DNA of 32,000 nucleotides from Erysipelotrichaceae bacterium. GTDB lineage: Bacteria; Bacillota_I; Bacilli_A; Erysipelotrichales; Erysipelotrichaceae. This document shows positions 1 to 31,765 of this stretch, one piece after another. Below the pieces are notes generated by a model, which saw only the letters and a program-made list of their open reading frames with translations, made no database searches and had not been told where the DNA came from. Positions within the stretch are counted from its first letter, which is position 1; each line of letters starts with the position of its first letter. Location: contig OY781039.1 of assembly GCA_963676105.1 (NCBI GenBank), positions 1 through 32,000 on the forward strand, written 5' to 3'. The position numbers were made by a program, and so were the translations under genes.

Positions 1-3000
1 CAACAAATCCAGTAGTAGGTGTATATGAGAAACCACCATTAGCAGCTAATACTAGAACACCATTTACAACGTTAACATTTAGAACTGAGGTTAAAGGATC
101 AGCTTCAACATCAGTATCGTTAGCTAAGATACCAGCTGCAGCAACTGTCAATGTGGTGTTACCAACTACTGTATACGTATTAGCAACAGCTACAGGAGCA
201 TCATTTACTGGTGTAACTTCGATGGTAATTGTTGCAGGATCAGAAACTAATCCTTCTTCATCTTCAACTGTAAAGGTGAAACTATCACTACCAACAAAGT
301 TAGCATTAGGTGTATAAGTAATCGCAGAACCTGTACCACTTAGAACACCATTAGTAGGAGTAGTTGTAGCATAGATTAAGGTTGCACTTTCTATATCATC
401 ACCATCTAAAGTAACATCTAGAGCAGTATCTTCAGGAGTTGTTAACTCTTGACCTTCAGCTGTAGGAGTATCATTAACTGGTGTCACTTCGATGGTAATT
501 GTTGCTGGATCAGAATCAACTGTTCCATCATTTGTAACGAAGGTAAAGCTATCTGTGCCAACAAAGTTAGTGTTTGGTGTATAAGTGATTTCAGTTCCTG
601 TACCACTTAGAACACCATTAGTAGGATTGGATGGGAAATAAGTTATGAGATCACCATCAACATCATCGCCAGTTAAGGTAATCGCTAATGGAGTATCTTC
701 AGGAGTTGTTAATTCTTGTGAATCAGCAGTAGGTGCATCATTGATTGAATTAATGGTAATTGTAACGGTTGCAGTATCAGTTAACAAACCATCTGTAATT
801 GTATAATCAAAGGAATCTAAACCATTGAAGTTTAGAGCAGGTGTGTAGTTGAATGAACCATTAGTATTCATTACAACGCTACCACCTAGATTTGTTGTAA
901 TTGAGGTTTCAACAACTTCAATTGCATCACCATCAGGATCACTATCATTTAATAAAATACTTTGTTCAACAGGAACTACTAGGATGGTATCTTCATCAGT
1001 TGAGAATGCATTATCTTCAGCAACTGGAGCATCATTGATTGAATTAACAGTAATTGAAATATTAGCAACTTCAGAATATAGTTCACCATCATAAACTCTA
1101 AAGGTGAATGAGTCAGAGCCATGATAATCAGCAGCAGGTGTATAAGTAATATTTTCACCTGTTCCACTTAATGTACCATTTGTTGGATTTGAAACAATAC
1201 TGAAGCTTAGATTTGAACCCTCAAAGTCAGAACCTGTAAGAATGATATCTAAAGGTGTATCTTCATCTGTATCTAGAGTTTGATCATCTGCTACAGGAGC
1301 TTGATTAACTTCAGTAACATTGATTGTTACAGTAGCAGTATTTGAATCAAGATTCCCATCATTAGCAACGTAAGTAAAGCTATCTGTTCCATTAAAGTTG
1401 GTATCAGGAGTATATGTGAATGAACCATCAATACCAAGAATTAAAGTACCGTCAGTAACATTACTTACTAGACTTGATGTTAATGTATCACCATCAATAT
1501 CACTATCATTATCTAAAACACCATCAACAGGAACATTTAAAGTACCATTTTGAGAAACAGTATAAGAGTCATCTGCAGCAACAGGTGCATCGTTAACTGG
1601 TGTAACGTTAATTGTAACGGTTGCAGTATCAGTTAACAAACCATCTGTAATTGTATAATCAAAGGAATCTAAACCATTGAAGTTTAGAGCAGGTGTGTAG
1701 TTGAATGAACCATTAGTATTCATTACAACGCTACCACCTAGATTTGTTGTAATTGAGGTTTCAACAACTTCAATTGCATCACCATCAATATCATAGTCAT
1801 TCAATAAAACGCTTTGTTCGATAGGAACATTAAGTTCAGTATCTTCAGCTGTTGTATATGAATTATTAACTGCAACAGGCGCGTCATTCACAGGATTAAC
1901 AGTAATTGTAACTGTTACTGTATTTGAATTTAATAATGTATCATTTGCTACATATGTGAAGGTATCAATACCTGTGAAATCTACATCTGGAAGATAGGTG
2001 AATGAACCATCAAGATTTAATGTTAATGTACCAAAATTAACATCTGTTACTAAAACAGCAGACAATGGATCACCATCAACATCACTATCATTCGCTAAAA
2101 CTCCACCAGCAGGAATTGTTAATAATGTTTCCTCATCGGTTGAGAAACTATCATTTATAGCCACAGGTGCATCATTAACTGGTGTAACTGTGATTGAGAT
2201 GGTTGCTGGAGTTGATGTTAAATCACCATCACTTGTTGTGAATGTAAAACTATCTGTACCTACATAGTCTAAATCAGGTGTGTATGTAATGTTTGCACCA
2301 GAACCGCTTAATGATCCGTGTGCAGGAGTGCCGGTAATAAAGGTTAAATCATCACCGTTAGGATCAGATCCAGATAAAGTAATCGCTAGAGCTGTATCCT
2401 CAGGAGTTTCCAAATTTTGAGCATCTGCAATAGGTGCGGTATTTGAAACTGTAATATTCACTGTTGCGAAAAGAATAGAATCATCAGTTGAATCATTTGC
2501 GAAATATGTAAAACTATCTGGACCTACATAATCAGTTGTAGGAACATAAGTGAATGAACCGTCGGAATTTAGCGTTAATGTTCCATTTGAAACGTCAGTA
2601 TTTAAACTTGCGCTCAAGGAATCGTTTTCAATATCAGTATCATTAGCTAAAACGCCATTAGGTACTATTGTTAATGAACCGTTCTTATCGACTGAATAAC
2701 TATCATCGACAGCCACAGGTGCATCATTTATTGGATTAACTGTAATGTCTACTGTTACAGTTTCTGAATCATAACCAACGAATCCATCGTTAGCAAAGTA
2801 AGTAAAGCTATCTGGACCGAAGTAATTTGGCACAGGAATATAGACAAATGAACCGTCAGCATTCAATGCAACAACACCATGTAATGCTTGGGTGTCTAGA
2901 ACAGCATTCATTGAATCGCCATCAGAATCGGTATCATTTCCTAAAACACCAGGGGCAACAATTGTAAGTGGTGTATCTTCATCAGTTGAATATTCATCAC

Positions 3001-3685
3001 CAACTGCCACAGGAGCTACATTACTTCTGAAGTAAGCAGTAATACGAACAAATTTTACTGCACCACCTTGATTTGCATTTTCATATTCAATACTTTCTAC
3101 AAACCAGTGATCAAAGACGAATCCATCAATTGTAGCTGGGACAATGGTATAACCATTAGCATTATAATATGCGACAATTGCGTCAGCGTTATCATCTTCT
3201 TCATAAGTTGCCCAGAATGTATTCCATTCATCCACAGGGATAGTAACGATAATCTCTTCATCACCACCATTACCCTGTCCATTATTGGCAGATCCATCGA
3301 CATCAAAGTGCATTTCAAATTGATCGGCAATAACCTCTAAAGTGACCGTTGCGGTATCAGTATCAGTGCCATCAGTTAATGAATAGGTAAATGTATCTGT
3401 ACCATACCAATTTGAGTTTGGGGTATAAACAAAACTACCATTTGAATTCAAGGTCAATGATCCATTGACAACATCAGTATCTAATGAGACTGTAAGTCCG
3501 CTACCAATATCATTATCTAGAACACCTTTATTTGCAGCTACTGAAATTGAAGTATTCTCAGCAACTTCATAAGAGTCATCTATAGCATCAATAGTTAATG
3601 CATAGATTGGTAAGGTGCTCCACGAATTAAATGATAGGGTGAAAACCATTAAGATTTTCGTTAATCGTGTAATTAATTTAAGCAT
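1..3685 (-). CDS. Giant secreted tandem-repeat surface protein / putative adhesin with cadherin-like / VCBS-type Ig-fold repeats. Only the N-terminal ~1228 aa are in the window; the C-terminus lies beyond position 1.
   Basis: Absent from the supplied ORF track because there is no in-window stop. The minus-strand frame from ATG at 3685 stays open to position 1, with GGAGGA at 3693-3698 upstream. The N-terminus MLKLITRLTKILMVFTLSFNSWSTLPIYA looks like a Sec signal peptide. There are at least 12 tandem modules of ~88-98 aa (period 262-295 bp). Subtype A reads VNDAPVA.DDSY...VLANDTD.DGD.L....G.L.L..DGSFTYTP....G.DSFTY. Subtype B reads Q.L.T.EDT.L.I.L.G.D.DGD.L.F...P..G.L.G.G..ITYTP...VG.DSFTF. 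Translated by eye, so a hidden frameshift cannot be fully excluded. Confidence 0.85.
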   Translation of the reverse strand, partial: MLKLITRLTKILMVFTLSFNSWSTLPIYALTIDAIDDSYEVAENTSISVAANKGVLDNDIGSGLTVSLDTDVVNGSLTLNSNGSFVYTPNSNWYGTDTFTYSLTDGTDTDTATVTLEVIADQFEMHFDVDGSANNGQGNGGDEEIIVTIPVDEWNTFWATYEEDDNADAIVAYYNANGYTIVPATIDGFVFDHWFVESIEYENANQGGAVKFVRITAYFRSNVAPVAVGDEYSTDEDTPLTIVAPGVLGNDTDSDGDSMNAVLDTQALHGVVALNADGSFVYIPVPNYFGPDSFTYFANDGFVGYDSETVTVDITVNPINDAPVAVDDSYSVDKNGSLTIVPNGVLANDTDIENDSLSASLNTDVSNGTLTLNSDGSFTYVPTTDYVGPDSFTYFANDSTDDSILFATVNITVSNTAPIADAQNLETPEDTALAITLSGSDPNGDDLTFITGTPAHGSLSGSGANITYTPDLDYVGTDSFTFTTSDGDLTSTPATISITVTPVNDAPVAINDSFSTDEETLLTIPAGGVLANDSDVDGDPLSAVLVTDVNFGTLTLNLDGSFTYLPDVDFTGIDTFTYVANDTLLNSNTVTVTITVNPVNDAPVAVNNSYTTAEDTELNVPIEQSVLLNDYDIDGDAIEVVETSITTNLGGSVVMNTNGSFNYTPALNFNGLDSFDYTITDGLLTDTATVTINVTPVNDAPVAADDSYTVSQNGTLNVPVDGVLDNDSDIDGDTLTSSLVSNVTDGTLILGIDGSFTYTPDTNFNGTDSFTYVANDGNLDSNTATVTINVTEVNQAPVADDQTLDTDEDTPLDIILTGSDFEGSNLSFSIVSNPTNGTLSGTGENITYTPAADYHGSDSFTFRVYDGELYSEVANISITVNSINDAPVAEDNAFSTDEDTILVVPVEQSILLNDSDPDGDAIEVVETSITTNLGGSVVMNTNGSFNYTPALNFNGLDSFDYTITDGLLTDTATVTITINSINDAPTADSQELTTPEDTPLAITLTGDDVDGDLITYFPSNPTNGVLSGTGTEITYTPNTNFVGTDSFTFVTNDGTVDSDPATITIEVTPVNDTPTAEGQELTTPEDTALDVTLDGDDIESATLIYATTTPTNGVLSGTGSAITYTPNANFVGSDSFTFTVEDEEGLVSDPATITIEVTPVNDAPVAVANTYTVVGNTTLTVAAAGILANDTDVEADPLTSVLNVNVVNGVLVLAANGGFSYTPTTGFV
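757..935 (-). repeat. Copy 1 of a 179-bp perfect direct repeat inside the adhesin gene
   Basis: Base-for-base identical to 1609-1787 by direct comparison. The offset is 852 bp (284 codons, three repeat modules). Flanking sequence is clearly diverged. Confidence 0.9.
1609..1787 (-). repeat. Copy 2 of the 179-bp perfect direct repeat inside the adhesin gene
   Basis: Identical to 757-935. It encodes ...AIEVVETSITTNLGGSVVMNTNGSFNYTPALNFNGLDSFDYTITDGLLTDTATVTI. Confidence 0.9.
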
Positions 3686-3701
3686 ATAATTATCCTCCTT
3701 T

Positions 3702-3815
3702 TTGAAAAAATAAAAATGACCGGTTTTCTGCTTTTGTGCAGTTGACCGGTCATAGATTACTCTTTAGACGCCTAACTTTGTGCCCTTAACTTTCGCTAAG
3801 TTTACCTTTTAACAA
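3702..3815 (-). promoter_or_regulatory. Proximal c-di-GMP-I (GEMM-I)-like riboswitch aptamer (about 3741-3812) plus intrinsic terminator (3702-3753), immediately upstream of the adhesin RBS
   Basis: The minus-strand RNA reads AAAAGGUAAAC-CUUAGC-GAAA-GUUAAG-GGCACAAAG-UUAGGC-GUCUAAAG-AGUAAU-CUAUGAC-CG-GUCAAC. GGUAAAC...GAAA...GCACAAAG resembles the GEMM-I core GGCAAAC...GAAA...ACGCAAAG. A 6-bp hairpin is capped by a GAAA tetraloop. GUCUAAAG/CUAUGAC resembles the 11-nt tetraloop receptor (CCUAAG/UAUGG). A 9-bp stem AUGACCGGU/ACCGGUCAU follows, then UUUUUAUUUUUU. Confidence 0.6.
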
Positions 3816-3997
3816 GACGATTCAGTTTTTGTGTCCCTCATTCAATAATCATTCCTCCTTTGAGATATCGATCATCTCTAAGGAATAAAAATGACCGGTT
3901 CTCTGCTATGTGCAGTTGACCGGTCATAGATTGCTCTTTAGACGTCTAACTTTGTGCCCTTAACTTTCGCTAAGTTTACCTTTTAACAATACGATTT
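3711..3997 (-). repeat. Two ~112-bp direct repeat blocks (3711-3823 and 3886-3997, 175-bp period) carrying the riboswitch-like elements
   Basis: Direct alignment by eye gives ~95% identity. Sequence outside the blocks is unrelated. Confidence 0.9.
3880..3990 (-). promoter_or_regulatory. Distal c-di-GMP-I (GEMM-I)-like riboswitch aptamer (about 3915-3986) plus intrinsic terminator (3884-3927); tandem duplicate of the proximal element
   Basis: Same motifs as the proximal copy. Block 3886-3997 differs from 3711-3823 by 5 substitutions and 1 indel over ~112 nt. The terminator stem is AUGACCGGU/ACCGGUCAU followed by UUUUUAUU. Confidence 0.6.
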
Positions 3998-4026
3998 AAT
4001 TGTAAATTTAATAGATAAGAAATCGG

Positions 4027-4078
4027 GGTGCATAAAACAAATTTTTACATACATATATAGATATATAGTTTATGCACC
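4027..4078. promoter_or_regulatory. 10-bp perfect inverted repeat GGTGCATAAA / TTTATGCACC with a 32-bp TA-rich spacer, at or just downstream of the predicted adhesin transcription start
   Basis: The arms at 4027-4036 and 4069-4078 are exact reverse complements. The element sits directly downstream of the -10 box at 4082-4087 on the minus strand. Confidence 0.5.
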
Positions 4079-4081
4079 TAA

Positions 4082-4109
4082 ATTATATACCCTTAAAAAT
4101 CTATGTCAA
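4082..4109 (-). promoter_or_regulatory. Near-consensus sigma-A type promoter for the riboswitch-adhesin transcript
   Basis: Minus strand: TTGACA (4109-4104), 16 nt, TATAAT (4087-4082). Confidence 0.65.
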
Positions 4110-4167
4110 TGTATACGCACATGAACTTTATATCACATAGTAAGCACTTAAAATATGTACCTATAAA

Positions 4168-4192
4168 ATAAAAAGCCTAATTGGCTTTTATT
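4168..4192 (-). terminator. Intrinsic terminator downstream of tRNA-Trp
   Basis: Minus strand: AAAGCC-aatta-GGCUUU followed by UUAUUUUAU. The stem is short, so this is moderate evidence. Confidence 0.5.
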
Positions 4193-4199
4193 GAATATC

Positions 4200-4273
4200 T
4201 GGCAGGGGTAGTAGGAGTTGAACCCACATTATTGGTTTTGGAGACCAGTGCTCTACCATTGAACTATACCCCT
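4200..4273 (-). tRNA. trnW: tRNA-Trp (anticodon CCA), 74 nt with encoded 3' CCA
   Basis: The reverse complement folds as a cloverleaf. Acceptor stem is AGGGGUA/UACCCCU with discriminator G and CCA. D stem is GUUC/GAGC. Anticodon loop is CU-CCA-AA. T arm is GUGGG-UUCAACU-CCUAC. Confidence 0.93.
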
Positions 4274-4287
4274 ATAGGTGCTAAAAC

Positions 4288-4316
4288 ATAATAGCATAGC
4301 ACTTGGGTGTTTTCAA
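4288..4316 (-). promoter_or_regulatory. Promoter for tRNA-Trp
   Basis: Minus strand: TTGAAA (4316-4311), 17 nt, TGcTATTAT (-10 at 4293-4288). The predicted start is ~8 nt before the tRNA 5' end. Confidence 0.55.
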
Positions 4317-4338
4317 TCCTAAACTGTTTAACTATACT
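4310..4338 (+). promoter_or_regulatory. Putative promoter of the GDPD gene (leaderless arrangement)
   Basis: TTTTCA (4310-4315), 17 nt, TATACT (4333-4338). The ATG lies 6 nt after the -10 box and there is no Shine-Dalgarno. Confidence 0.4.
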
Positions 4339-4344
4339 TAAATT

Positions 4345-5145
4345 ATGGAAATCATTTATTCATTTATAGTGATCACACTATTTATCTTTATATATAGACA
4401 ATTTGTTCCAAGAAAAAGAGTCTTTAAATATCCATGGTTGACCACTTATTTTGCACATCGAGGTTTGTATGCAAAAGATCAAAGTGTTGCCGAAAATTCA
4501 ATGTCAGCTTTTAGCTTAGCCAAAGAAAACAATTATGGGATTGAGTTGGATATTTCTTTGAGTAAAGATAATGAACTAATGGTTTTTCATGATGATGATT
4601 TAAACAGGATGTGTGGTATAAATCAAATTATCTCAGAGATGGATTCAAATGAATTAAAAGGAATTAGATTAAAAGATACAGAGGATTTTATTCCTTGTCT
4701 AAGTGACGTGTTCAATTTAATAAAGGGTTCAGTTCCTTTAATGATTGAACTAAAAACTAATCCTAATCGTAAAAAAACAGTAACTTTGCTTAAAGAACAA
4801 TTGAAAAACTATCAAGGGAACATTTGTGTGGTAAGTTTTGATCCATTAATTTTATGGGAAGTAAAACGACAGCTACCTTATGTATTAATAGGTCAAGTTG
4901 TCGAAGATTTTAAATATAATGAAAAATTATCAAAACCTGTACGTATTATTTTAAATTACGCATGTCTTAATTTCTTAGTTAGACCTGATTTTTTGAGTTT
5001 TAAGATTCAAGCCATTAATTGGGTCTATAAACTTCACATTTTTATGAAAGGTTTTGGCGCATTATGGGCCATAAATAGCCTGGATTGTGAAAAAAAATAC
5101 CAAAATTTGGCAAATCTCATTATTTTTGAACATTTTCGTCCATAA
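4345..5145 (+). CDS. Glycerophosphodiester phosphodiesterase family protein with N-terminal membrane anchor
   Basis: GDPD signature AHRGLY...ENSMSAF....GIELDISLSKDNELMVFHDDDLNRM. The N-terminus MEIIYSFIVITLFIFIY is hydrophobic. Confidence 0.85.
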   Translation: MEIIYSFIVITLFIFIYRQFVPRKRVFKYPWLTTYFAHRGLYAKDQSVAENSMSAFSLAKENNYGIELDISLSKDNELMVFHDDDLNRMCGINQIISEMDSNELKGIRLKDTEDFIPCLSDVFNLIKGSVPLMIELKTNPNRKKTVTLLKEQLKNYQGNICVVSFDPLILWEVKRQLPYVLIGQVVEDFKYNEKLSKPVRIILNYACLNFLVRPDFLSFKIQAINWVYKLHIFMKGFGALWAINSLDCEKKYQNLANLIIFEHFRP

Positions 5146-5156
5146 AAAAATTAGAG

Positions 5157-5165
5157 TGCTATACT
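5157..5165 (+). promoter_or_regulatory. Extended -10 promoter element of the MATE gene (leaderless arrangement)
   Basis: TGcTATACT, with the ATG at 5173 seven nt downstream and no Shine-Dalgarno. Confidence 0.45.
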
Positions 5166-5172
5166 TTTATTC

Positions 5173-6585
5173 ATGAGCTTAGTAAATTCAATTTTGAATT
5201 TGTTTAGAGTAGAGAATTTAATCCCGAAAAAACATCAAACACATCCTTTGCCTTCTTCTAGTGAAGTCTATAAAAATACGCTAAATACAGCATGGCCATC
5301 TGCGTTAGAGTCGCTTTTAATTGCCTTAGTTTCGATTGTTGATATGATTATGGTTTCTTCGATTGGAACTGAAGCTATTGCGGCAGTTGGAATTGTCACA
5401 CAACCGCGTTTTATTGTGATGTCTTTTGTAATGGCGCTAAACTTAGGGACAACCGTTGTGGTCGCAAGACGTAAAGGTGCTAATAATCCTGAAAGTGCGA
5501 ATGTTGCGCTCAAAAATGCCTTTATGTTGAGTATTGCTTTGTCGTTAGTCACAACTGTCGTTGGGGCAATTTTTGCGCCTCAAATATTAATCTTCGCAGG
5601 GGCAACTGCTGATTATATGGATTATGCAGTCGGATATTACCGTATTATCCTAATTGGTGCCTTTTTCTTACTTGTGTCGTTGACCATTTCATCTGCTCAA
5701 AGGGGAGTTGGAAATACAAAAGTCTCAATGGTCATTAACATTAGTGCTAACTTAGTTAATGTGCTATTTAATTATTTATTGATTAACGGAATATGGATTT
5801 TCCCAAAACTTGGGGTTATTGGGGCTGCAACTGCAACCTCAATTGGTAACTTTGTTGGTTTTTGTTTAGCTTTATATAGTGTTATGCATCATGATCGTTT
5901 CTTGAGTTTTGTTTCGCATAAAGATTGGCACATTGATATTGAATCAATCAAAATCCTTTATAACATTAGTATGCCAGCCTTTATTGAACAGATCTTTATT
6001 CGTTTTGGTTTCTTGATGTATCAAAAAGCTGTTGCGGGCTTAGGAACCCTTCAATTCGCAACACACTTTATTATTATGCAAATGATGCAGTTAAGTTTCA
6101 GTATTGGGAATGGCCTATCGATTGCAACATCAAGTTTAGTTGGACAAAGTTTAGGGGCAAAAAGAAAAGATTTAGCTTTAATCTATGGCAAAGTTTCACA
6201 ACGACTAGGATTAATCGCTGCCATAAGTTTGTCACTTCTAATTATTATTTTTAGAGTTCAATTTATAGGTTTCTTCACTGAAGATCCAGAAATTATTAAA
6301 CTAGGTACAAACATTATGTTGATATTGGCAATAATTGTTATCTTTCAAATATTACAAGTAATTACGATTGGATCTTTGCGGGGTGCAGGAGATGTTAAGT
6401 TTGTCGCAAAATTATCCATGTTTAGTGTGACACTCATTCGGCCGGCGCTCACTTATGTCTTAGCTTATATGGTAGGTTTAGAGATTTACGGAGCTTGGTT
6501 AAGTGTAATACTAGACCAATTTATACGATATATAGTCAGTCGAATACGTTTTCATAATGCCGAATGGCTATCAATTGAAGTCTAA
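5173..6585 (+). CDS. MATE family efflux transporter
   Basis: 470 aa and highly hydrophobic, with about 12 TM segments. The N-terminal region (NTAWPSALESLLIALVSIVDMIMVSSIGTEAIAAVG) is typical of MATE/NorM-like proteins. Confidence 0.85.
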   Translation: MSLVNSILNLFRVENLIPKKHQTHPLPSSSEVYKNTLNTAWPSALESLLIALVSIVDMIMVSSIGTEAIAAVGIVTQPRFIVMSFVMALNLGTTVVVARRKGANNPESANVALKNAFMLSIALSLVTTVVGAIFAPQILIFAGATADYMDYAVGYYRIILIGAFFLLVSLTISSAQRGVGNTKVSMVINISANLVNVLFNYLLINGIWIFPKLGVIGAATATSIGNFVGFCLALYSVMHHDRFLSFVSHKDWHIDIESIKILYNISMPAFIEQIFIRFGFLMYQKAVAGLGTLQFATHFIIMQMMQLSFSIGNGLSIATSSLVGQSLGAKRKDLALIYGKVSQRLGLIAAISLSLLIIIFRVQFIGFFTEDPEIIKLGTNIMLILAIIVIFQILQVITIGSLRGAGDVKFVAKLSMFSVTLIRPALTYVLAYMVGLEIYGAWLSVILDQFIRYIVSRIRFHNAEWLSIEV

Positions 6586-6668: not shown

Positions 6669-9600
6669 ATGTCTGAGAAAAAATATTTATCGATGGATGG
6701 TAACCAAGCAACCGCGCACGTAGCGTACGCATTTACTGAAGTTGCGGCTATCTATCCAATCACACCATCTTCTCCAATGGCTGAACATGTCGATGCCTGG
6801 GCTTCAAAAGGCCGCAAAAACTTGTTCGGTGACGTTGTTAGAGTTGTAGAAATGCAATCAGAAGGTGGCGCATCTGGTGCCGTTCACGGTGCCTTACAAG
6901 GCGGTGCATTAGCCGCTACATTTACTGCATCACAAGGTTTACTATTGATGCTTCCAAACCTTTATAAATGGGTTGGTGAATTATTACCTGCAGTTATGCA
7001 CGTATCTGCACGATCACTAGCTACTCGTGCTTTATCTATCTTTGGTGATCACCAAGATATCTATGCCGTTCGTCAAGCTGGCGCAACGATGATTTCAGCA
7101 CACTCTGTCCAAGAAGCAATGGACTTAGCGGGTGTTGCTCACTTAACAGCTATTAAATCTGAAGCTCCGGTTATTCATTTCTTTGATGGTTTTAGAACTT
7201 CACATGAAATTCAAAAAGTTGAAGTTATTGATACTGATGAGCTTTTTAAATTGATTGATAAAGATGCATTAGAACGTTTCCGTGCTCGTGCCCTCAATCC
7301 ACATACAAATCCAGTAACACGTGGTGGTGCTGAAAATGATGACGTTTACTTCCAAGCTCGTGAAGCTCAAAACGAACACTATAACCAAGTACTTCCAATT
7401 GTTGAAGATTACATGGCTAAAGTGTCAAAAATTACTGGACGTCATTACGCGCCATTTACTTACTATGGTGCAGCTGATGCAGACCGCGTTATTATTGCGA
7501 TGGGTTCTGTAACTCAAGCAACTGAAGAAGTTGTTGATGCGATGAATGCAGCTGGCGCAAAAGTCGGGCTTGTTAAAGTCCACCTATATCGTCCATTTGC
7601 AGCAGATCGTTTGATTTCTGTATTACCTAAATCTGTTAAGAGTGTTGCAGTTTTAGACCGTACAAAAGAACAAGGTGCTAATGACCCTCTATTCTTAGAC
7701 GTATATGCAGCTCTTAAAGGTGTTAATGACATCGAAGTTATCGTTGGTGGACGTTATGGTTTATCTTCAAAAGATACACAACCTGCTGACATTAAAGCTG
7801 TCTATGACAACTTAGTTGCAGAAAAACCTGTACACAGTTTCACAATTTCAATTATTGATGATGTGACTAACTTATCACTTAAATCAGATGAAAACTTTAA
7901 AGTTGAAACTGATTATACATCTTGCTTATTCTACGGTTTAGGTTCAGATGGTACTGTTAGTGCTAATAAAAATGCGATTAAAATTATCGGTGATAACACA
8001 GATCTTTATTCACAAGCATATTTCGCTTATGACTCAAAGAAAGCTGGTGGTGTAACTCGTTCTAACTTACGTTTTGGTCCATCTCCAATTAAATCAACTT
8101 ATTATGTAAAAAATGCTGACTTCATTTCATGTTCTATGGATTCATTCTTATTGAACTATGATATGTTGAAGAACTTAAAAGACGGTGGTACTTTCTTACT
8201 TAACACTTCATTCACATTAGATGAAATTGAAGGACAATTACCTAACCGAGTTAAGAAACAATTAGCTGACAAAAATGCAAAATTATTCATTATTGATGCG
8301 ACTAAGATTGCTGAATCAATTGGTATGGGTCGTCGTACAAATACCATCCTTCAATCTTCATTCTTTGCATTAAATGAACAAATTCTACCTTATGACAAAG
8401 CACTTGTTTATATGAAAGAAGCTGCTAAAAAATCATATTCTAAAAAAGGTGAAGAAATCGTTAAATTAAACTATGAAGCGATTGATAATGGTAAATCTGG
8501 TTTAGTAGAAGTACCTGTAAAAGTTGAATGGTCTAACTTAACAGTTGTTAAGACACGTAAAGTTACTGGTGATGAATACTTCGATAGCCACGTTGATCCA
8601 ATCAATGCATTAGATGGTTATGAAGTTCCTGTTTCAGAATTCATGAAATATGGTTTACTTGATGGTTCATTCAGAAATAATGTTGCTTATCAAGAACATA
8701 GACAATCGGCTACACAAGTGCCTATGTGGCATCCAGAAAACTGTATCCAATGTGGATTCTGTTCTATGGTTTGTCCGCATGCAACCATCCGTACATTTGT
8801 ATTAACAGATGAAGAAGTTGCGAATGCACCAATGGAATTCGAAACATTACCTGCAATGGGTAAAGGTTTAGAAGATCTTAAATATCGTGTTATGGTTTCA
8901 CCTGACAACTGTGTTGGATGTAACCTATGTGTTGTTGAGTGCCCAGGTAAAGGTGGTCAAAAAGCCCTTACGATGGAAGATGTTAAAGAACGTCTATACG
9001 AAGCACCTCTTGCTGACTACATGTACAAACACACTGAATACAAAACTGACTTAGTTGATTCAAGCACAATCAAAGGCTCACAATTCTTAGAACCTTACTT
9101 CGAAGTATCTGGTGCTTGTGCTGGTTGTGGCGAAACACCTTACTACAAACTTGCATCTCAATTATTCGGTAAAGATATGTTAATTGCCAACGCAACAGGT
9201 TGTTCTTCAATCTATTGTGGTTCTGCACCATCTACACCATTTGTTACTGACAAAAACGGTGAAGGTATTGCTTGGGGTAACTCATTATTCGAAGACAATG
9301 CTGAATATGGTTTCGGTATGAAAGTTGCTCAAGAGTTCAAAGCAAAACGTGTTGTTGAACTTGTAACTGCTGCCAAAGAAGAAGACAGTGCTTTAGCTGA
9401 TGTTGTTGATCGTTATGTGGCTGTTAAAGGTACACGTAATGAAGAACGTCTAGTTGTTAAAGAACTTGTTGCTGCTCTAAAAGCATCTAAATCAGCATCT
9501 GCTGCTCTAGCACTTGAAATGGAACGTGACTTCGTTTCTAACTCAGTCTGGATTGTTGGTGGTGATGGTTGGGCTTATGACATCGGTTACGGTGGCTTAG

Positions 9601-10234: not shown

Positions 10235-11242
10235 ATGAAAATTTGTCTATATTTCGAAGCAGAGCGAATCATTTCAGGCTCTGGTATTGGGCGTGCTCAA
10301 ATCCATCAAAAAATAGCACTTGAAAGTGCGGGTGTTTCATATACCTTAGATCCAAATGATGATTATGATTTACTGCATATCAATACAATTGGACCTGTAT
10401 CCATGACAACCATTGCGACAGCAAGACGACGTAAAAAAGCAATCCTTTTTCATGCGCATTCAACCGAAGAAGACTTTAGAAATTCATTTATTTTCTCTAA
10501 TCGAGTTTCCTCTTTATTTAAGAAACATTTAATATCCATGTATACACAAGCAGATGTGATTGTTTCACCAACACCCTATGCGAAAAGATTGCTCGAAGGT
10601 TATGGTATAAAGTTGCCAATTCATGCGATTAGTAATGGAATAGATCTTGAGAAATATAAATATGATAAAGATAAAGCCTACGCGTTTAGACGTTATTTTT
10701 CACTTGATAAAAATCAGAAGGTGATTATTGGAGCTGGCTTATATATCAAACGTAAAGGTCTTCAAGATTTTTTAGACGTCGCATCACATTTTCCTGATAT
10801 TACATTTATTTGGTTTGGTCATTCACCATCCTATTCCATCCCAAGTGATTTAAAGAATAAAATTGAAAACCATTGTGCTAATGTCATTTTACCAGGCTAT
10901 GTAAAAGGACCGATTATTGAAGGTGCTTATATGGAAAGTGATATGTTCTTTTTTCCATCATATGAGGAAACCGAAGGGATTGTTGTCTTAGAAGCACTAG
11001 CTGCTAAGTGTCCCGTATTAATACGAGATATTGGTGTATATGAAGATTGGTTAGAAAATGGCGTTCACTGCTATAAAGCAACGGATAATATTGGCTTTGC
11101 TGAAACAATCAAAGATTTCTACGATAAAAAATTAGAAAATACCGTTGAGAATGGTTATCAAGTGGTACAAGATCGAACACTCGATAAAATTGGTCAACAA
11201 CTAAAAGCTCTTTATGAAAGTATGTTGGAGGGAAAAGAATGA
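10235..11242 (+). CDS. GT4 (GT-B fold) glycosyltransferase, probably a membrane glycolipid synthase (CpoA / diglycosyl-diacylglycerol synthase-like)
   Basis: 335 aa with the C-terminal GT-B motif FFFPSYEETEGIVVLEALAAKCPVL (E-x7-E). It overlaps the next GT gene by ATGA. The paired arrangement resembles the Acholeplasma alMGS/alDGS and pneumococcal cpoA loci. The specific substrate is inferred only. Confidence 0.8.
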   Translation: MKICLYFEAERIISGSGIGRAQIHQKIALESAGVSYTLDPNDDYDLLHINTIGPVSMTTIATARRRKKAILFHAHSTEEDFRNSFIFSNRVSSLFKKHLISMYTQADVIVSPTPYAKRLLEGYGIKLPIHAISNGIDLEKYKYDKDKAYAFRRYFSLDKNQKVIIGAGLYIKRKGLQDFLDVASHFPDITFIWFGHSPSYSIPSDLKNKIENHCANVILPGYVKGPIIEGAYMESDMFFFPSYEETEGIVVLEALAAKCPVLIRDIGVYEDWLENGVHCYKATDNIGFAETIKDFYDKKLENTVENGYQVVQDRTLDKIGQQLKALYESMLEGKE

Positions 11243-13209
11243 GAATCGGCTTATTCAGTGATACATATGCACCAGAAATAAATGGTGTTGTATCATCTAT
11301 TATTACACTTCAACAAGGCTTAGAAGCTTTAGGTCATGAAGTTTATATCATCACCACAAATTCTTCACTCACAAAAGTGTCGTATGAAGATCATGTTTTA
11401 AGATTGCCAGGTATTGAAATAAAGAAAATGTATGGCTATGTTTTATCATCACCCTTACATATTCGTGCTCAAAAAATGGTTAAAGAAATGAACTTAGATG
11501 TGATTCATGCCCATACTGAATTTGGGATTGGTATTTTTGCGAGAATTATCTCACATCAATTTGTATTACCATTAGTTATTACTTACCATACAACATATGA
11601 AGATTATACGCATTATGTTAATGTCTTTAATTCAAAACAGTTTGAAAAAATGGCACGTAAAACGGTTTCTAAACTATCACAAATTTATATCGATACTTCG
11701 GATGCGATTATTTCACCTAGTGATAAAACAAAACAAATGTTGTTGGGTTATGGGGTTAAAAAAGATATTCATGTTATCCCAACAGGATTAGATTTGGATC
11801 GTTTTGATCCTAGACATACAAGTGTTGAAGAAATCAAAACATTGAAAGAATCGATTGGAATAAATGAGTTAGAAAAGACAATCTTATATGTTGGACGAAT
11901 TGCCAAAGAGAAATCAATTGATTTAATCATTGATGGTTTTAATGAAATTCAGAGAGAAGATACACATCTTGTGATTGTAGGAGATGGACCTGAATTAGAT
12001 AACTTAAAGAAACAAGCTAAACGTTTAAGTTCAAATCAACGTATACATTTTTTAGGACGTAAACCTTCCAAAGAAATTCCACAATATTATCATATGAGTG
12101 ATATCTTTGTGTCTGCTTCATTAACAGAAACACAAGGGATGACATTTGTAGAATCCTTTGCCTCACATACACCTGTATTCGCACGGGAAGATGATGTCTT
12201 AAAAGAACTGATTAAAGAAAATGAGACAGGCTATTTCTTTGACACAGCTCAAAACTTCGCACAAAAGATCGAAACCTACTTAGATTTAGATGAAACACAA
12301 AAAAGCACAATACAAAATCAATCCTCAGAAATGGCTAAACCATATGCACGTGATGCTTTTATTGAAAAGGTTTTAAAAGTATATAGACAGGCGATTGAAG
12401 ATGTTAATGAATCAATGCTACTTGAAACAGTGGTGAATGTGGATGATGTGGTGGAATGTCATTTAGTGAATCGTAAGCGTGAACTAGATGTACTTGTCTC
12501 AAGAGAAATGTTTGTATTAGAAGGCTTAAGAAAGGGGAACCTAGTGACTAAAGAAACCATTGAAGAATTGATGAAGAATGAACAATTCACCAAGGCTTAT
12601 CAAAAATGTATTCGAAAATTAGCTAGTAAAGACCGTTCTGTTAAAGAAATGTATGATTTCTTAAGCGAGAAAACAAGCTTATCAATTGGCCAAATTAATA
12701 AGTTAATTGATTATTTAGAGAACAAAGGTTACCTTAACGATGAAGAGTTTGCGCAATCAATGGTACATTCTTATCGATCACTTCTTCAAGGCCGTCATAA
12801 AGTTATTCGTAATCTTCGTAAAAAAGGAATATCTGAAAAGTTAATTGATCGCGTCTTAAGTGATGAAATACTAGAAGATGAAGTTGAACATGCGATTGCT
12901 TGGGCAAATAAAGTTAAACCAAGTCTTAAGGATAAATCTTTACGGGAACTTAAACAAAGTTTAAATCAAAGAATGATTAGTCAAGGCTTTGATTTTGATG
13001 TCATTGAACAAGTCATGGGATCTTTATCCTTTAGTGAAGAAGAACAAGCTGAACTTGATAATTTACGAAAAGCAGCTATAAAAGCACGCAAACGTTATAG
13101 TGCTAAGCATAGTGGTACGGCATTAAGAAATGCCATCTTTACCTACTTAGACCATAAGGGTTATGCTTTAGATGATATTTATATTGTATTAAATGAAATG
13201 GAGTTTTAA
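11239..13209 (+). CDS. Fusion protein: N-terminal GT4 glycosyltransferase (monoglycosyl-diacylglycerol synthase-like, about aa 1-390) and C-terminal full-length RecX-like module (about aa 393-656)
   Basis: The N-terminus MRIGLFSDTYAPEINGVVSSI and the motif SASLTETQGMTFVESFASHTPV are typical of GT4. The C-terminal part has RecX-type helical repeats (KAYQKCIRKLASKDRSVKEMYDFL...LIDYLENKGYLNDEEFAQSMV...VIRNLRKKGISEKLIDRVL...LNQRMISQGFDFDVIEQVM). Before them is a Firmicute-RecX-like N-terminal segment (VECHLVNRKRELDVLVSREMFVLEGLRKGNLV). The ORF is one continuous reading frame. Confidence 0.75.
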   Translation: MRIGLFSDTYAPEINGVVSSIITLQQGLEALGHEVYIITTNSSLTKVSYEDHVLRLPGIEIKKMYGYVLSSPLHIRAQKMVKEMNLDVIHAHTEFGIGIFARIISHQFVLPLVITYHTTYEDYTHYVNVFNSKQFEKMARKTVSKLSQIYIDTSDAIISPSDKTKQMLLGYGVKKDIHVIPTGLDLDRFDPRHTSVEEIKTLKESIGINELEKTILYVGRIAKEKSIDLIIDGFNEIQREDTHLVIVGDGPELDNLKKQAKRLSSNQRIHFLGRKPSKEIPQYYHMSDIFVSASLTETQGMTFVESFASHTPVFAREDDVLKELIKENETGYFFDTAQNFAQKIETYLDLDETQKSTIQNQSSEMAKPYARDAFIEKVLKVYRQAIEDVNESMLLETVVNVDDVVECHLVNRKRELDVLVSREMFVLEGLRKGNLVTKETIEELMKNEQFTKAYQKCIRKLASKDRSVKEMYDFLSEKTSLSIGQINKLIDYLENKGYLNDEEFAQSMVHSYRSLLQGRHKVIRNLRKKGISEKLIDRVLSDEILEDEVEHAIAWANKVKPSLKDKSLRELKQSLNQRMISQGFDFDVIEQVMGSLSFSEEEQAELDNLRKAAIKARKRYSAKHSGTALRNAIFTYLDHKGYALDDIYIVLNEMEF

Positions 13210-29129: not shown

Positions 29130-29135
29130 TGAGTG

Positions 29136-29354
29136 CGTAAGCAATGATAGACCCAAGTAAATAAGACGCTTAAATTAGAGATCTGTAGATGTGCTGAAAT
29201 ACAGATAAGTGATTATTGAAACTCAGTCTTGAGCATAAAAGTGAAAAGCTTTTACGGATATCGCCGTTAACGATTCAAGTGTATACATGTACAATGTATA
29301 AATTAAGGTGGTACCGCGGAGCTCTTCGTCCTTATATGGATGTGGAGTTTTTTT
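29136..29354 (+). promoter_or_regulatory. T-box riboswitch leader with Leu specifier (CUC) and terminator/antiterminator
   Basis: AGAGA box at 29177-29181 and Stem I distal helix AUCUGUA/UACAGAU. The specifier context is GAAA-CUC-A (CUC at 29222-29224). The T-box sequence AAGGUGGUACCGCG is at 29305-29318. The terminator stem at 29322-29347 is followed by UUUUUUU. The downstream gene is leuS. Confidence 0.9.
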
Positions 29355-29374: not shown

Positions 29375-31765
29375 ATGAAAGACCATACTTCAATAGAGAA
29401 AAAATGGCAGAAATTTTGGGATGACAATGAAACCTTTAAATGTGATGTCTATGACTTTGATAAGCCAAAAGCTTATATCCTAGATATGTTTCCATATCCT
29501 AGTGGAAATGGATTACATGTAGGCCATCCTGAAGGTTATACCGCAACCGATGTATTATCTAGAATGCGTCGCATGCAAGGCTATAACGTACTACATCCAA
29601 TGGGTTGGGATGCCTTTGGATTACCAGCTGAACAACATGCTTTAAATACAGGGAACCATCCTGCAGAATTTACAAAGCATAATATTCAAACGTTTAAAAA
29701 TCAAATTAAGAGTTTAGGTTTATCCTATGACTGGTCAAAAGAGTTTGCGACTACTGATCCAGAGTACTATAAATGGACACAATGGATTTTCTTACAACTT
29801 TACAACAAAGGTTTAGCTTATGTGGACGAAATCCCAGTTAACTGGTGTCCTGAACTTGGGGCCGTTTTAGCTAATGAAGAAGTCATCGATGGTAAGAGTG
29901 AGCGTGGGAATTTCCCGGTTTTTAGAGTTCCAATGCGTCAATGGGTTTTACGTATTACAGAATATGCTGAAAGACTCTTAGAAGATTTAGAACTCGTTGA
30001 TTGGCCAAGTAGCACAAAAGAAATGCAGATTAATTGGATTGGTAAATCTGTTGGGGCAAATGTTAACTTCAAAGTTAAAGATCATGCTAAAGAATTCACC
30101 GTATTTACTACTCGTTGTGATACGTTATTTGGCGCGACCTATTGTGTTCTATCTCCTGAGCATCCATTTGTTTCTGAGATCACAACAGCTAACAAAAAAG
30201 ATGAAGTCGAAGCGTATGTTAAAGCTTGTTCAACAAAATCTGATTTAGAAAGAACAGAACTTAATAAAGACAAGACTGGCGTCTTTACTGGCGCTTATGC
30301 GATTAACCCTGTAAATAATCAAGAAGTGCCTATTTGGATTTCTGATTATGTCTTAGTCTCTTATGGAACAGGCGCAATTATGGCGGTTCCTGCACATGAT
30401 GAGCGTGACTATGAATTTGCGAAGAAATTTGATTTAGAAATCATTCCAGTACTAGAGGGTGGAAACATTGAAGAAGAAGCCTTTGTTGGGGATGGTAAGC
30501 ATATTAATTCAGGTTTCTTAAATGGTTTGAATAAAGAAGATGGTATCGCAACCATGATTGAATGGTTGAAGAAAGAAGGAAAAGGGGAAGCTAAAACCTC
30601 ATATAAACTTCGCGACTGGATTTTCTCTCGTCAACGTTATTGGGGTGAACCTATTCCTGTTATCTTAATGGATGACGGTACTCAAAGAACAGTTGATATT
30701 GATGAACTACCTTTAGAATTACCAGTTGTCGATAACTATAAACCTGCCGATACAGGTGAATCACCATTGGCGAATGCGGGTAGTTGGTTAGATGTTGAAA
30801 TTGATGGGATTAAAGGTCACAGAGAAACCAATACCATGCCTCAGTGGGCAGGAAGTTGTTGGTATTACTTGCGTTATTTAGATCCTAGAAATGATAAAGC
30901 GATTGCTGATCCAAAACTTATGGAACACTGGTTGCCAGTTGATCTATATGTAGGTGGTGCAGAACATGCCGTATTACACTTACTTTATTCTCGTTTCTGG
31001 CATAAGGTTTTATATGACTGTGGGGTTGTCCCAACAAAAGAACCATTTGGGAAACTATTCCACCAAGGCATGATCCTAGGTGAAAATGGTGAAAAAATGA
31101 GTAAATCTCGTGGTAATGTCATTAACCCTGATGATATTTTAATCACACATGGTGCTGATGCTTTGCGTGTATATGAAATGTTTATGGGACCACTTGAGGC
31201 AACACTTCCTTGGTCTAATTCAGGCCTTGATGGTACACGTCGTTGGATTGAGCGTGTTGAGCGTGCTTTCTTAGAACTTAATAAACTATCTGATACGAAT
31301 GATCACTCATTAGATAAGGTTTATCATGCGACGGTTAAGAAAGTAACTCACGATATTGAAACATTAAACTTTAATACAGCTATTTCTCAAATGATGATCT
31401 TCATTAATGAATGTTATAAAGTTGAAAGTATTTATAAGGAATATGCCTTAGGTTTTGTGAAGATGTTTAATACCTTTGCCCCTCATATGGGTGAAGAGTT
31501 GTGGACAGAACTCACTGGTAAAGAAGGTATATCTTATGAAGCGTGGCCAACGTACGATGAAAAATACTTAGTTGAGAAGGAAGTTGAAATGGTTTTCCAA
31601 GTTAATGGTAAAATCAAAGCAAAATCAACTGTTGCCTTTGATGCAGATCAAGCAACTGTAGAAGCCATCGCCAAAGAATTAGATGGCATTAAGGATGCAC
31701 TTGAAGGAAAAACAATCCGTAAAGTTATTCACGTTAAAAATAAACTTATTAATTACGTAGTATAA
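29375..31765 (+). CDS. leuS: Leucine--tRNA ligase
   Basis: 796 aa with HIGH-type motif (HVGHPEGY), KMSKS motif ([10 protein letters not shown]) and RBS AAAGGAG upstream. Confidence 0.97.

Follow-up and report, generated by a model that had tools for sequence, protein, structure and literature searches.

Organization of the adhesin locus

The window, a 32,000-nucleotide stretch of DNA (contig OY781039.1, positions 1 to 32,000), has a GC content of 35%, and in a PFOR-anchored comparison with GTDB species genomes it falls among uncultured Erysipelotrichaceae. The minus strand of the window carries the 5' part of a giant repeat adhesin gene. The subject of this work is the leader of this gene, in which two near-identical units, each combining an aptamer of the cyclic diguanylate (c-di-GMP)-I riboswitch family with an intrinsic terminator, follow one another between a promoter and the ribosome-binding site (RBS). 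The features of the locus are as follows, from upstream to downstream.

4273..4200, minus strand: tRNA-Trp (Rfam tRNA model, 64.3 bits; ARAGORN anticodon CCA)
4189..4171, minus strand: terminator of tRNA-Trp, the upstream boundary of the locus (terminator scan)
4082..4109, minus strand: sigma-70-type promoter, TTGACA (4109..4104), 16-nt spacer, TATAAT (4087..4082)
3996..3884, minus strand: unit 1 (aptamer and terminator), 113 nt
3990..3908, minus strand: aptamer 1, c-di-GMP-I (GEMM-I, type 1), RF01051 62.0 bits, E 5.2e-10, model positions 1-87
3884..3927, minus strand: intrinsic terminator 1, AUGACCGGU (3927..3919) / ACCGGUCAU (3899..3891), inner stem CUGC/GCAG, then UUUUUAUU; -19.7 kcal/mol, z -6.98
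3822..3883, minus strand: spacer between the units, with an exact second copy (3861..3853) of the Shine-Dalgarno (SD) 9-mer AAAGGAGGA and a 7-codon open reading frame (ORF; 3845..3822)
3822..3709, minus strand: unit 2 (aptamer and terminator), 114 nt
3816..3734, minus strand: aptamer 2, c-di-GMP-I, RF01051 62.2 bits, E 4.5e-10, model positions 1-87
3705..3753, minus strand: intrinsic terminator 2, AUGACCGGU (3753..3745) / ACCGGUCAU (3724..3716), inner stem CUGC/GCAG, then UUUUUAUUUUUU; -20.0 kcal/mol, z -6.19
3683..3701, minus strand: RBS AAAGGAGGA (3701..3693) and start codon ATG (3685..3683), read from the sequence and kept in the nearest relative
1..3685, minus strand: giant repeat adhesin gene, 5' part, starting at ATG 3685 and open for 1228 codons to the window edge

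Because the tRNA-Trp gene has its own terminator, the riboswitch leader forms a separate transcription unit. The promoter that an earlier note on this DNA had placed at 4082-4109 agrees with the consensus at 12 of 12 positions, and transcription would start near position 4075.

The same note had described two near-identical blocks on the minus strand, differing by five substitutions and one indel and spaced by 175 bp. This description is borne out: the units are 113 and 114 nt long and 95% identical, with exactly these differences, and their starts lie 174-175 nt apart. The motifs quoted in the note, GGUAAAC, CUUAGC-GAAA-GUUAAG, GGGCACAAAG, GUCUAAAG and CUAUGAC, are found in each unit. A pattern covering a 46-nt core matches twice in the window and not at all in shuffled sequences. 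When the units are aligned, the changes are located in the 5' flank, the loop of helix P3 (GCAA in unit 1, GUAA in unit 2), one P3 pair, the terminator loop and a terminator bulge. At the only paired model position that differs between the aptamers, unit 1 has A-U and unit 2 has G-U, so the differences do lie in loops or convert an A-U to a G-U pair, as had been proposed.

The ORF starting at 3685 is best read as a secreted giant adhesin of the tandem-95 / VCBS / cadherin-like type. Its N-terminus contains a signal-peptide-like segment, and the Pfam families Big_9, Cadherin_4 and Cadherin_5 each match 12 stretches of the protein. Database homologs carry the name 'tandem-95 repeat' or 'VCBS repeat' protein. 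When the N-terminal part of the protein was searched for homologs, no close ortholog was returned, only generic repeat-domain matches with 30-57% identity over part or most of the query and one short match of 70%.

Aptamers, terminators and predicted switch polarity

An Rfam scan at the gathering threshold over the whole window matched RF01051 twice over its full length (62.0 and 62.2 bits; the gathering score is 35), in agreement with the c-di-GMP-I assignment of the earlier note. With the Rfam pairs mapped onto the two sequences, 20 of 20 model pairs are canonical in both aptamers. Helix P2 is formed by CUUAGC-GAAA-GUUAAG, while the tetraloop-receptor halves GUCUAAAG and CUAUGAC are located in P3. 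Both the GAAA tetraloop of P2 and the receptor halves in P3 (CUAAG / UAUG type) align with conserved columns of the Rfam consensus. The type-1 GEMM-I architecture that had been recognized by eye is thus consistent with the family consensus and with the canonical pairing; in this architecture the tetraloop would dock into the receptor.

The GAAA tetraloop in P2, the receptor in P3 and the G20, A47 and C92 contacts are common to these aptamers and to Vc2 of Vibrio cholerae. The window aptamers differ from Vc2 in the closing pair of P2 at the junction, which is U-A where the consensus has C-G, in a very short distal part of P3 (2 bp and a 4-nt loop), in a short P1 and in their expression platform, which is an intrinsic terminator.

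Rfam columns 11, 38 and 83 read G, A and C in both aptamers. We take these columns to be G20, A47 and C92 of Vc2, following our own alignment. Of the two guanines of the ligand, one is recognised by G20 and the second pairs with C92 (PMC6140456). A guanine at position 20 goes with c-di-GMP, whereas an adenine there is the hallmark of GEMM-Ib RNAs that sense cyclic GMP-AMP (cGAMP) (PMC6140456; PMC9481103). The wild-type G20 RNA binds cGAMP with a dissociation constant (KD) of ~10 uM, compared with picomolar for c-di-GMP (PMC6140456). At the G20 equivalent, both window aptamers and both aptamers of the nearest relative have G, not the A of GEMM-Ib, and the best model within the Rfam clan is the parent c-di-GMP-I. 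Since G stands at this position in both aptamers, the sequence favours c-di-GMP as the ligand and disfavours cGAMP, a choice that the earlier note had left open.

Each aptamer runs into its own terminator. The 9-bp stems followed by a U-run that had been noticed in the earlier reading are both present, with hairpin energies of -19.7 and -20.0 kcal/mol, z-scores computed against shuffles as listed above, and a U5 run after each hairpin. The 5' arm of each terminator is the 3' strand of P3 of its own aptamer, and the inner stem takes in the nucleotide equivalent to C92. Seven nucleotides of each unit take part in pairs of the aptamer as well as of the terminator structure. ViennaRNA gives -28.5 and -34.0 kcal/mol for the terminator conformers of units 1 and 2, and -15.3 and -16.0 kcal/mol when the aptamer is enforced. 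Without ligand, the terminator conformer is accordingly preferred by ~13-18 kcal/mol, and it is also the minimum-free-energy fold of the full unit. Neither unit contains a separate anti-terminator element, so the aptamer itself is predicted to act as the anti-terminator, which makes each unit a predicted ON switch. The shared nucleotides and the conformer energies thus support the proposal of the earlier note that aptamer and terminator are likely to be mutually exclusive and that the ligand would switch transcription on. The same logic of aptamer/terminator overlap has been described for Bc4 of B. thuringiensis (PMC4759541). The second terminator ends 15 nt before the RBS, and in every predicted fold the RBS is unpaired with aptamer sequence.

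Relatives and evolution of the array

The nearest genome, L001, is a metagenome-assembled genome (MAG), the 1.95-Mb chromosome OY760660.1, with a PFOR that is 94% identical to that of the window. In the next-nearest species PFOR is mostly 72-79% identical, with one partial match at 84%. L001 is syntenic over the whole locus: tRNA-Trp, the promoter (kept as TTGACT-17-TATAAT), two aptamer-terminator units whose aptamers match RF01051 at 62.0 and 61.6 bits, the RBS and an adhesin gene, whose product is an ortholog of 1331 aa with 46% identity. Among 80 PFOR-anchored loci the riboswitch was found in L001 only, by a strict regular expression that may miss divergent aptamers. On a metagenome contig, L081, a homologous adhesin gene with the same N-terminal domain is preceded by three aptamer-terminator units, which score 54.6, 70.2 and 67.1 bits. 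The same pattern scan of metagenomes also picked up two unrelated single riboswitches, L082 and L083.

The seven related units (two from the window, two from L001 and three from L081) were aligned in order to assess covariation. Of the cells of the aptamer alignment at paired positions, 97.9% are paired, and both partners have changed in seven pairs, five of which belong to P2. In 500 shuffles, neither the observed paired fraction nor the covariation score was ever reached, and six shuffles reached the count of pairs changed on both sides. When the register is slid, at most 42% remain paired. The compensatory changes among the seven units therefore support the predicted aptamer fold. The terminator is 91% paired across the seven units and hardly varies, as would be expected of a sequence that serves two structures.

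The six compensatory positions of P2 read CUUAGC/GUUAAG in the window and CCAAGU/(G/A)CUUGG in L001, and in each genome their state is identical in both copies. At the sites in the terminator loop and bulge, on the other hand, copy 1 of the window groups with copy 1 of L001, and copy 2 with copy 2. As P2 is alike within genomes while the terminator-loop sites group by position, the simplest reading is that the duplication is older than the split between the window and L001 lineages and that gene conversion has later made part of the aptamer alike in the two copies; the informative sites are few. Copy number varies between two and three among the relatives. The spacer between the units holds an exact copy of the SD 9-mer of the gene, which suggests that the original duplication spanned aptamer, terminator and RBS.

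Between the units, only ORFs of at most 10 codons are present. The one listed above, MNEGHKN*, has a TTG start 7 nt downstream of the SD copy and stops at the 5' edge of unit 2. The spacer of L001 (about 7165..7205, minus strand) contains AAAGGAG followed by a colinear 7-codon ORF, MRKGIKK*. Neither the SD-like element nor the mini-ORF is present in the spacers of L081. We do not call the mini-ORF a gene: its amino acids are not conserved in L001 beyond what DNA identity brings along, and it is absent from L081. The SD copy and the mini-ORF together may be a relic of the duplication. It is improbable that the mini-ORF is translated and that ribosome occupancy modulates the folding of the second aptamer; if so, its translation would add a translational input to the tandem transcriptional switch. 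In both the window and L001, the SD copy has a possible pairing partner in a short UCUC or UCCU upstream of it. With the homogenised copies, the variable copy number and the spacer element taken together, there is a small chance that the array is more than two independent switches.

Other structures are predicted in the leader. A 5' stem-loop at 4078..4027 (-13.5 kcal/mol, z -2.8) has no conserved counterpart in L001, and we leave it out of the device. P3 is palindromic in both of its strands, with UUAG(A/G)CGUCUAA at 3764..3775 and 3938..3949 and UGACCGGUCA at 3743..3752 and 3917..3926. The minimum-free-energy fold of the full leader pairs unit 1 with unit 2 through the UUAG(A/G)CGUCUAA segments. 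We judge this pairing to be a by-product of the duplication and probably incidental; the palindrome is absent from L081.

Two further observations concern the relatives. In the first unit of L081 (1542..1459, minus strand) an A occupies the position equivalent to Vc2 G20 (AUCA|GUAAAC); in units 2 and 3 it is G. Should this A make the unit specific for cGAMP, or give it dual specificity, the adhesin of L081 would be preceded by a mixed cGAMP / c-di-GMP array. Downstream of the adhesin gene, L001 contains a transglutaminase-like gene (2025..2963, minus strand) and a gene resembling protein F of type II secretion systems (994..2016, minus strand). In Bacillota, according to a 2025 survey, tandem c-di-GMP-I riboswitches mainly target transglutaminase-like COG1305 genes (PMC12452182).

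The probable tandem switch and its alternatives

From the family match, the fold, the aptamer/terminator overlap and the conservation with covariation in relatives that are observed here, it is highly probable that two complete c-di-GMP-I riboswitches stand in series in the adhesin leader and act independently, both of them as transcriptional ON switches. RNA polymerase would start at the consensus promoter near 4075 and transcribe the units one after the other. Binding of c-di-GMP to a nascent aptamer would lock the 3' strand of P3 (GAC..GGUCAACU) together with the ligand-pairing C in the aptamer. Without ligand, this strand and the C would instead pair with the downstream ACCGGUCAU, and the resulting stem of 9 + 4 bp followed by the U-run would stop transcription. 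Full-length adhesin mRNA would need read-through at both terminators, so the output should be roughly the product of two read-through fractions. Units arranged in series in this way would lower the basal leak and make the response to c-di-GMP steeper and more digital, the behaviour termed 'pseudo-cooperative'. The role of c-di-GMP in the transition from a motile to a sessile lifestyle is well established, and high c-di-GMP, as the signal for the sessile state, would turn the adhesin on. We thus infer c-di-GMP as the ligand, ON polarity in vivo and a steepened dose-response.

Such arrangements are known. In a 2022 survey by Sherlock et al., c-di-GMP-I is the commonest homotypic tandem riboswitch, with 347 doublets and 12 triplets, and tandem riboswitches for one ligand are termed pseudo-cooperative (PMC9481103). 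The 2025 survey likewise finds c-di-GMP riboswitches to be significantly enriched as tandem complete riboswitches (PMC12452182). At our locus there is one upstream promoter, two complete aptamers, no intervening gene and a terminator with a U-run after each aptamer. As far as a sequence can be examined for them, the locus has all of the defining features of c-di-GMP-I riboswitches and of a pseudo-cooperative tandem. No architectural difference separates it from known homotypic tandems such as the tandem thiamine pyrophosphate (TPP) riboswitch of B. anthracis and the 347 c-di-GMP-I doublets (PMC9481103): two riboswitches for the same ligand share one 5' untranslated region, each has its own terminator and a steeper dose-response is expected. 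The tandem glycine riboswitch also has two homologous aptamers for one ligand per leader. In contrast to its single expression platform, the window aptamers each have their own terminator and lie ~90 nt apart, and true cooperative docking of the aptamers is therefore not expected.

The closest counterpart is the Bc3-5 triplet of B. thuringiensis, which controls cell-surface proteins and gives a steeper response in reporter experiments (Zhou et al. 2016, PMC4759541). Near-identical complete units in series, ON polarity and surface or adhesion targets are common to the triplets of B. thuringiensis/cereus and, as predicted, to the window locus, and in both the terminator of each unit overlaps the 3' strand of P3, the ligand-pairing C and P1. 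The window locus differs in having two units instead of three (its relative L081 has three), in its host, an uncultured member of the Erysipelotrichaceae and not of the B. cereus group, and in its target, a single giant repeat protein of the tandem-95 / cadherin-like type where the triplet has an operon for LPXTG-type proteins.

The 95% identity of the copies could by itself mean that the duplication is young, and unit 1 has the weaker predicted P1 helix. Both would fit a locus in which only one unit works and the other is a recent duplicate that has not yet decayed and has no regulatory role. We regard this as very unlikely. Another species, L001, has the doublet at the corresponding position, and the grouping of the loop and bulge sites puts the duplication before the split. 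Both copies keep all model pairs, the ligand contacts and a strong terminator, and a third relative, L081, has three intact units. Nor could an intact terminator in a leader be neutral, because it would attenuate the gene even if its aptamer were dead.

We assign a similarly small chance to aptamers that sense another cyclic dinucleotide, such as 3'3'-cGAMP in the manner of GEMM-Ib, or a variant ligand. GEMM-I relatives of altered specificity do exist, including in Clostridia (PMC6140456), and in L081 the triplet begins with a unit that has A as its G20 equivalent. The aptamers of the window and of L001, however, have G there, with A and C as the remaining contacts; a G20 RNA strongly discriminates against cGAMP (PMC6140456), and the parent c-di-GMP-I family provides the best clan model. 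Still less credible are OFF switches or an action on translation, by which c-di-GMP would repress the adhesin. OFF-type c-di-GMP-I riboswitches exist, Bc1 being an example (PMC11218506), and only 15 nt separate the end of the second terminator from the RBS. Yet the bound aptamer and the terminator cannot coexist, because the 5' arm of the terminator is the 3' strand of P3 and includes the ligand-pairing C. The RBS is moreover not paired with the aptamer in any predicted fold, and the same overlap is read as ON for Bc3-5, where it is supported by reporters (PMC4759541).

Several points weigh against our preferred reading, that of two ON switches responding to c-di-GMP in series. The ViennaRNA energies ignore tertiary contacts and the ligand, and the ON assignment follows from the topology of the overlap, not from measured kinetics. 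Our assumption that column 11 is Vc2 G20 rests on our own alignment of the Vc2 sequence. P1 is short, with 4 bp (UUGU/ACAA) in unit 2 and ~3 bp in unit 1, and as it is shorter in unit 1 the affinities of the two units may differ. Finally, no GGDEF, EAL or HD-GYP gene is located within the 32-kb window, and a tblastn search with approximate GGDEF/EAL consensus queries gave no match in the window or in L001.

In the same crude tblastn search, GGDEF and EAL coding sequences were found in three more distantly related Erysipelotrichaceae MAG fragments, L005, L012 and L029, which indicates that c-di-GMP signalling exists in the wider clade. In these fragments, the GGDEF/EAL sequences (L005 ~1670..2893, L029 ~1839..5336 and L012 ~4..942, all on the minus strand) lie a few kb upstream of PFOR, roughly where the window has its riboswitch-adhesin locus.

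Two features elsewhere in the window may be mentioned here. A T-box leader at 29135..29336 on the plus strand (RF00230, 126 bits) lies directly upstream of the leucyl-tRNA synthetase gene (29375..31765, plus strand), which is a standard arrangement. A 656-aa protein encoded at 11239..13209 on the plus strand has an unusual combination of an N-terminal GT4 glycosyltransferase with C-terminal RecX_HTH1/2/3 domains, and an ORF of similar size is found at the syntenic position in L001 (14572..16548, plus strand).

No new mechanism is involved: surface-protein genes preceded by tandem c-di-GMP-I riboswitches are a well-documented arrangement. The lineage itself is little studied, and a literature search combining 'c-di-GMP riboswitch' with Erysipelotrich* retrieved only a general review. 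With this analysis, ~400 nt of non-coding sequence can be annotated functionally with confidence. Two species with a doublet and one with a triplet, together with compensatory changes in P2 that the copies of one genome share, form a compact natural data set on the origin, homogenisation and copy-number change of a riboswitch array. The apparent concerted evolution of the copies, their variation between two and three, the A20-type unit in L081 and the conserved SD-like element with its mini-ORF add some modest further interest. For the organism, the locus predicts that a giant cadherin-like adhesin would be switched on sharply by c-di-GMP in an uncultured Erysipelotrichaceae lineage that has a small genome (~2 Mb) and is without experimental genetics.

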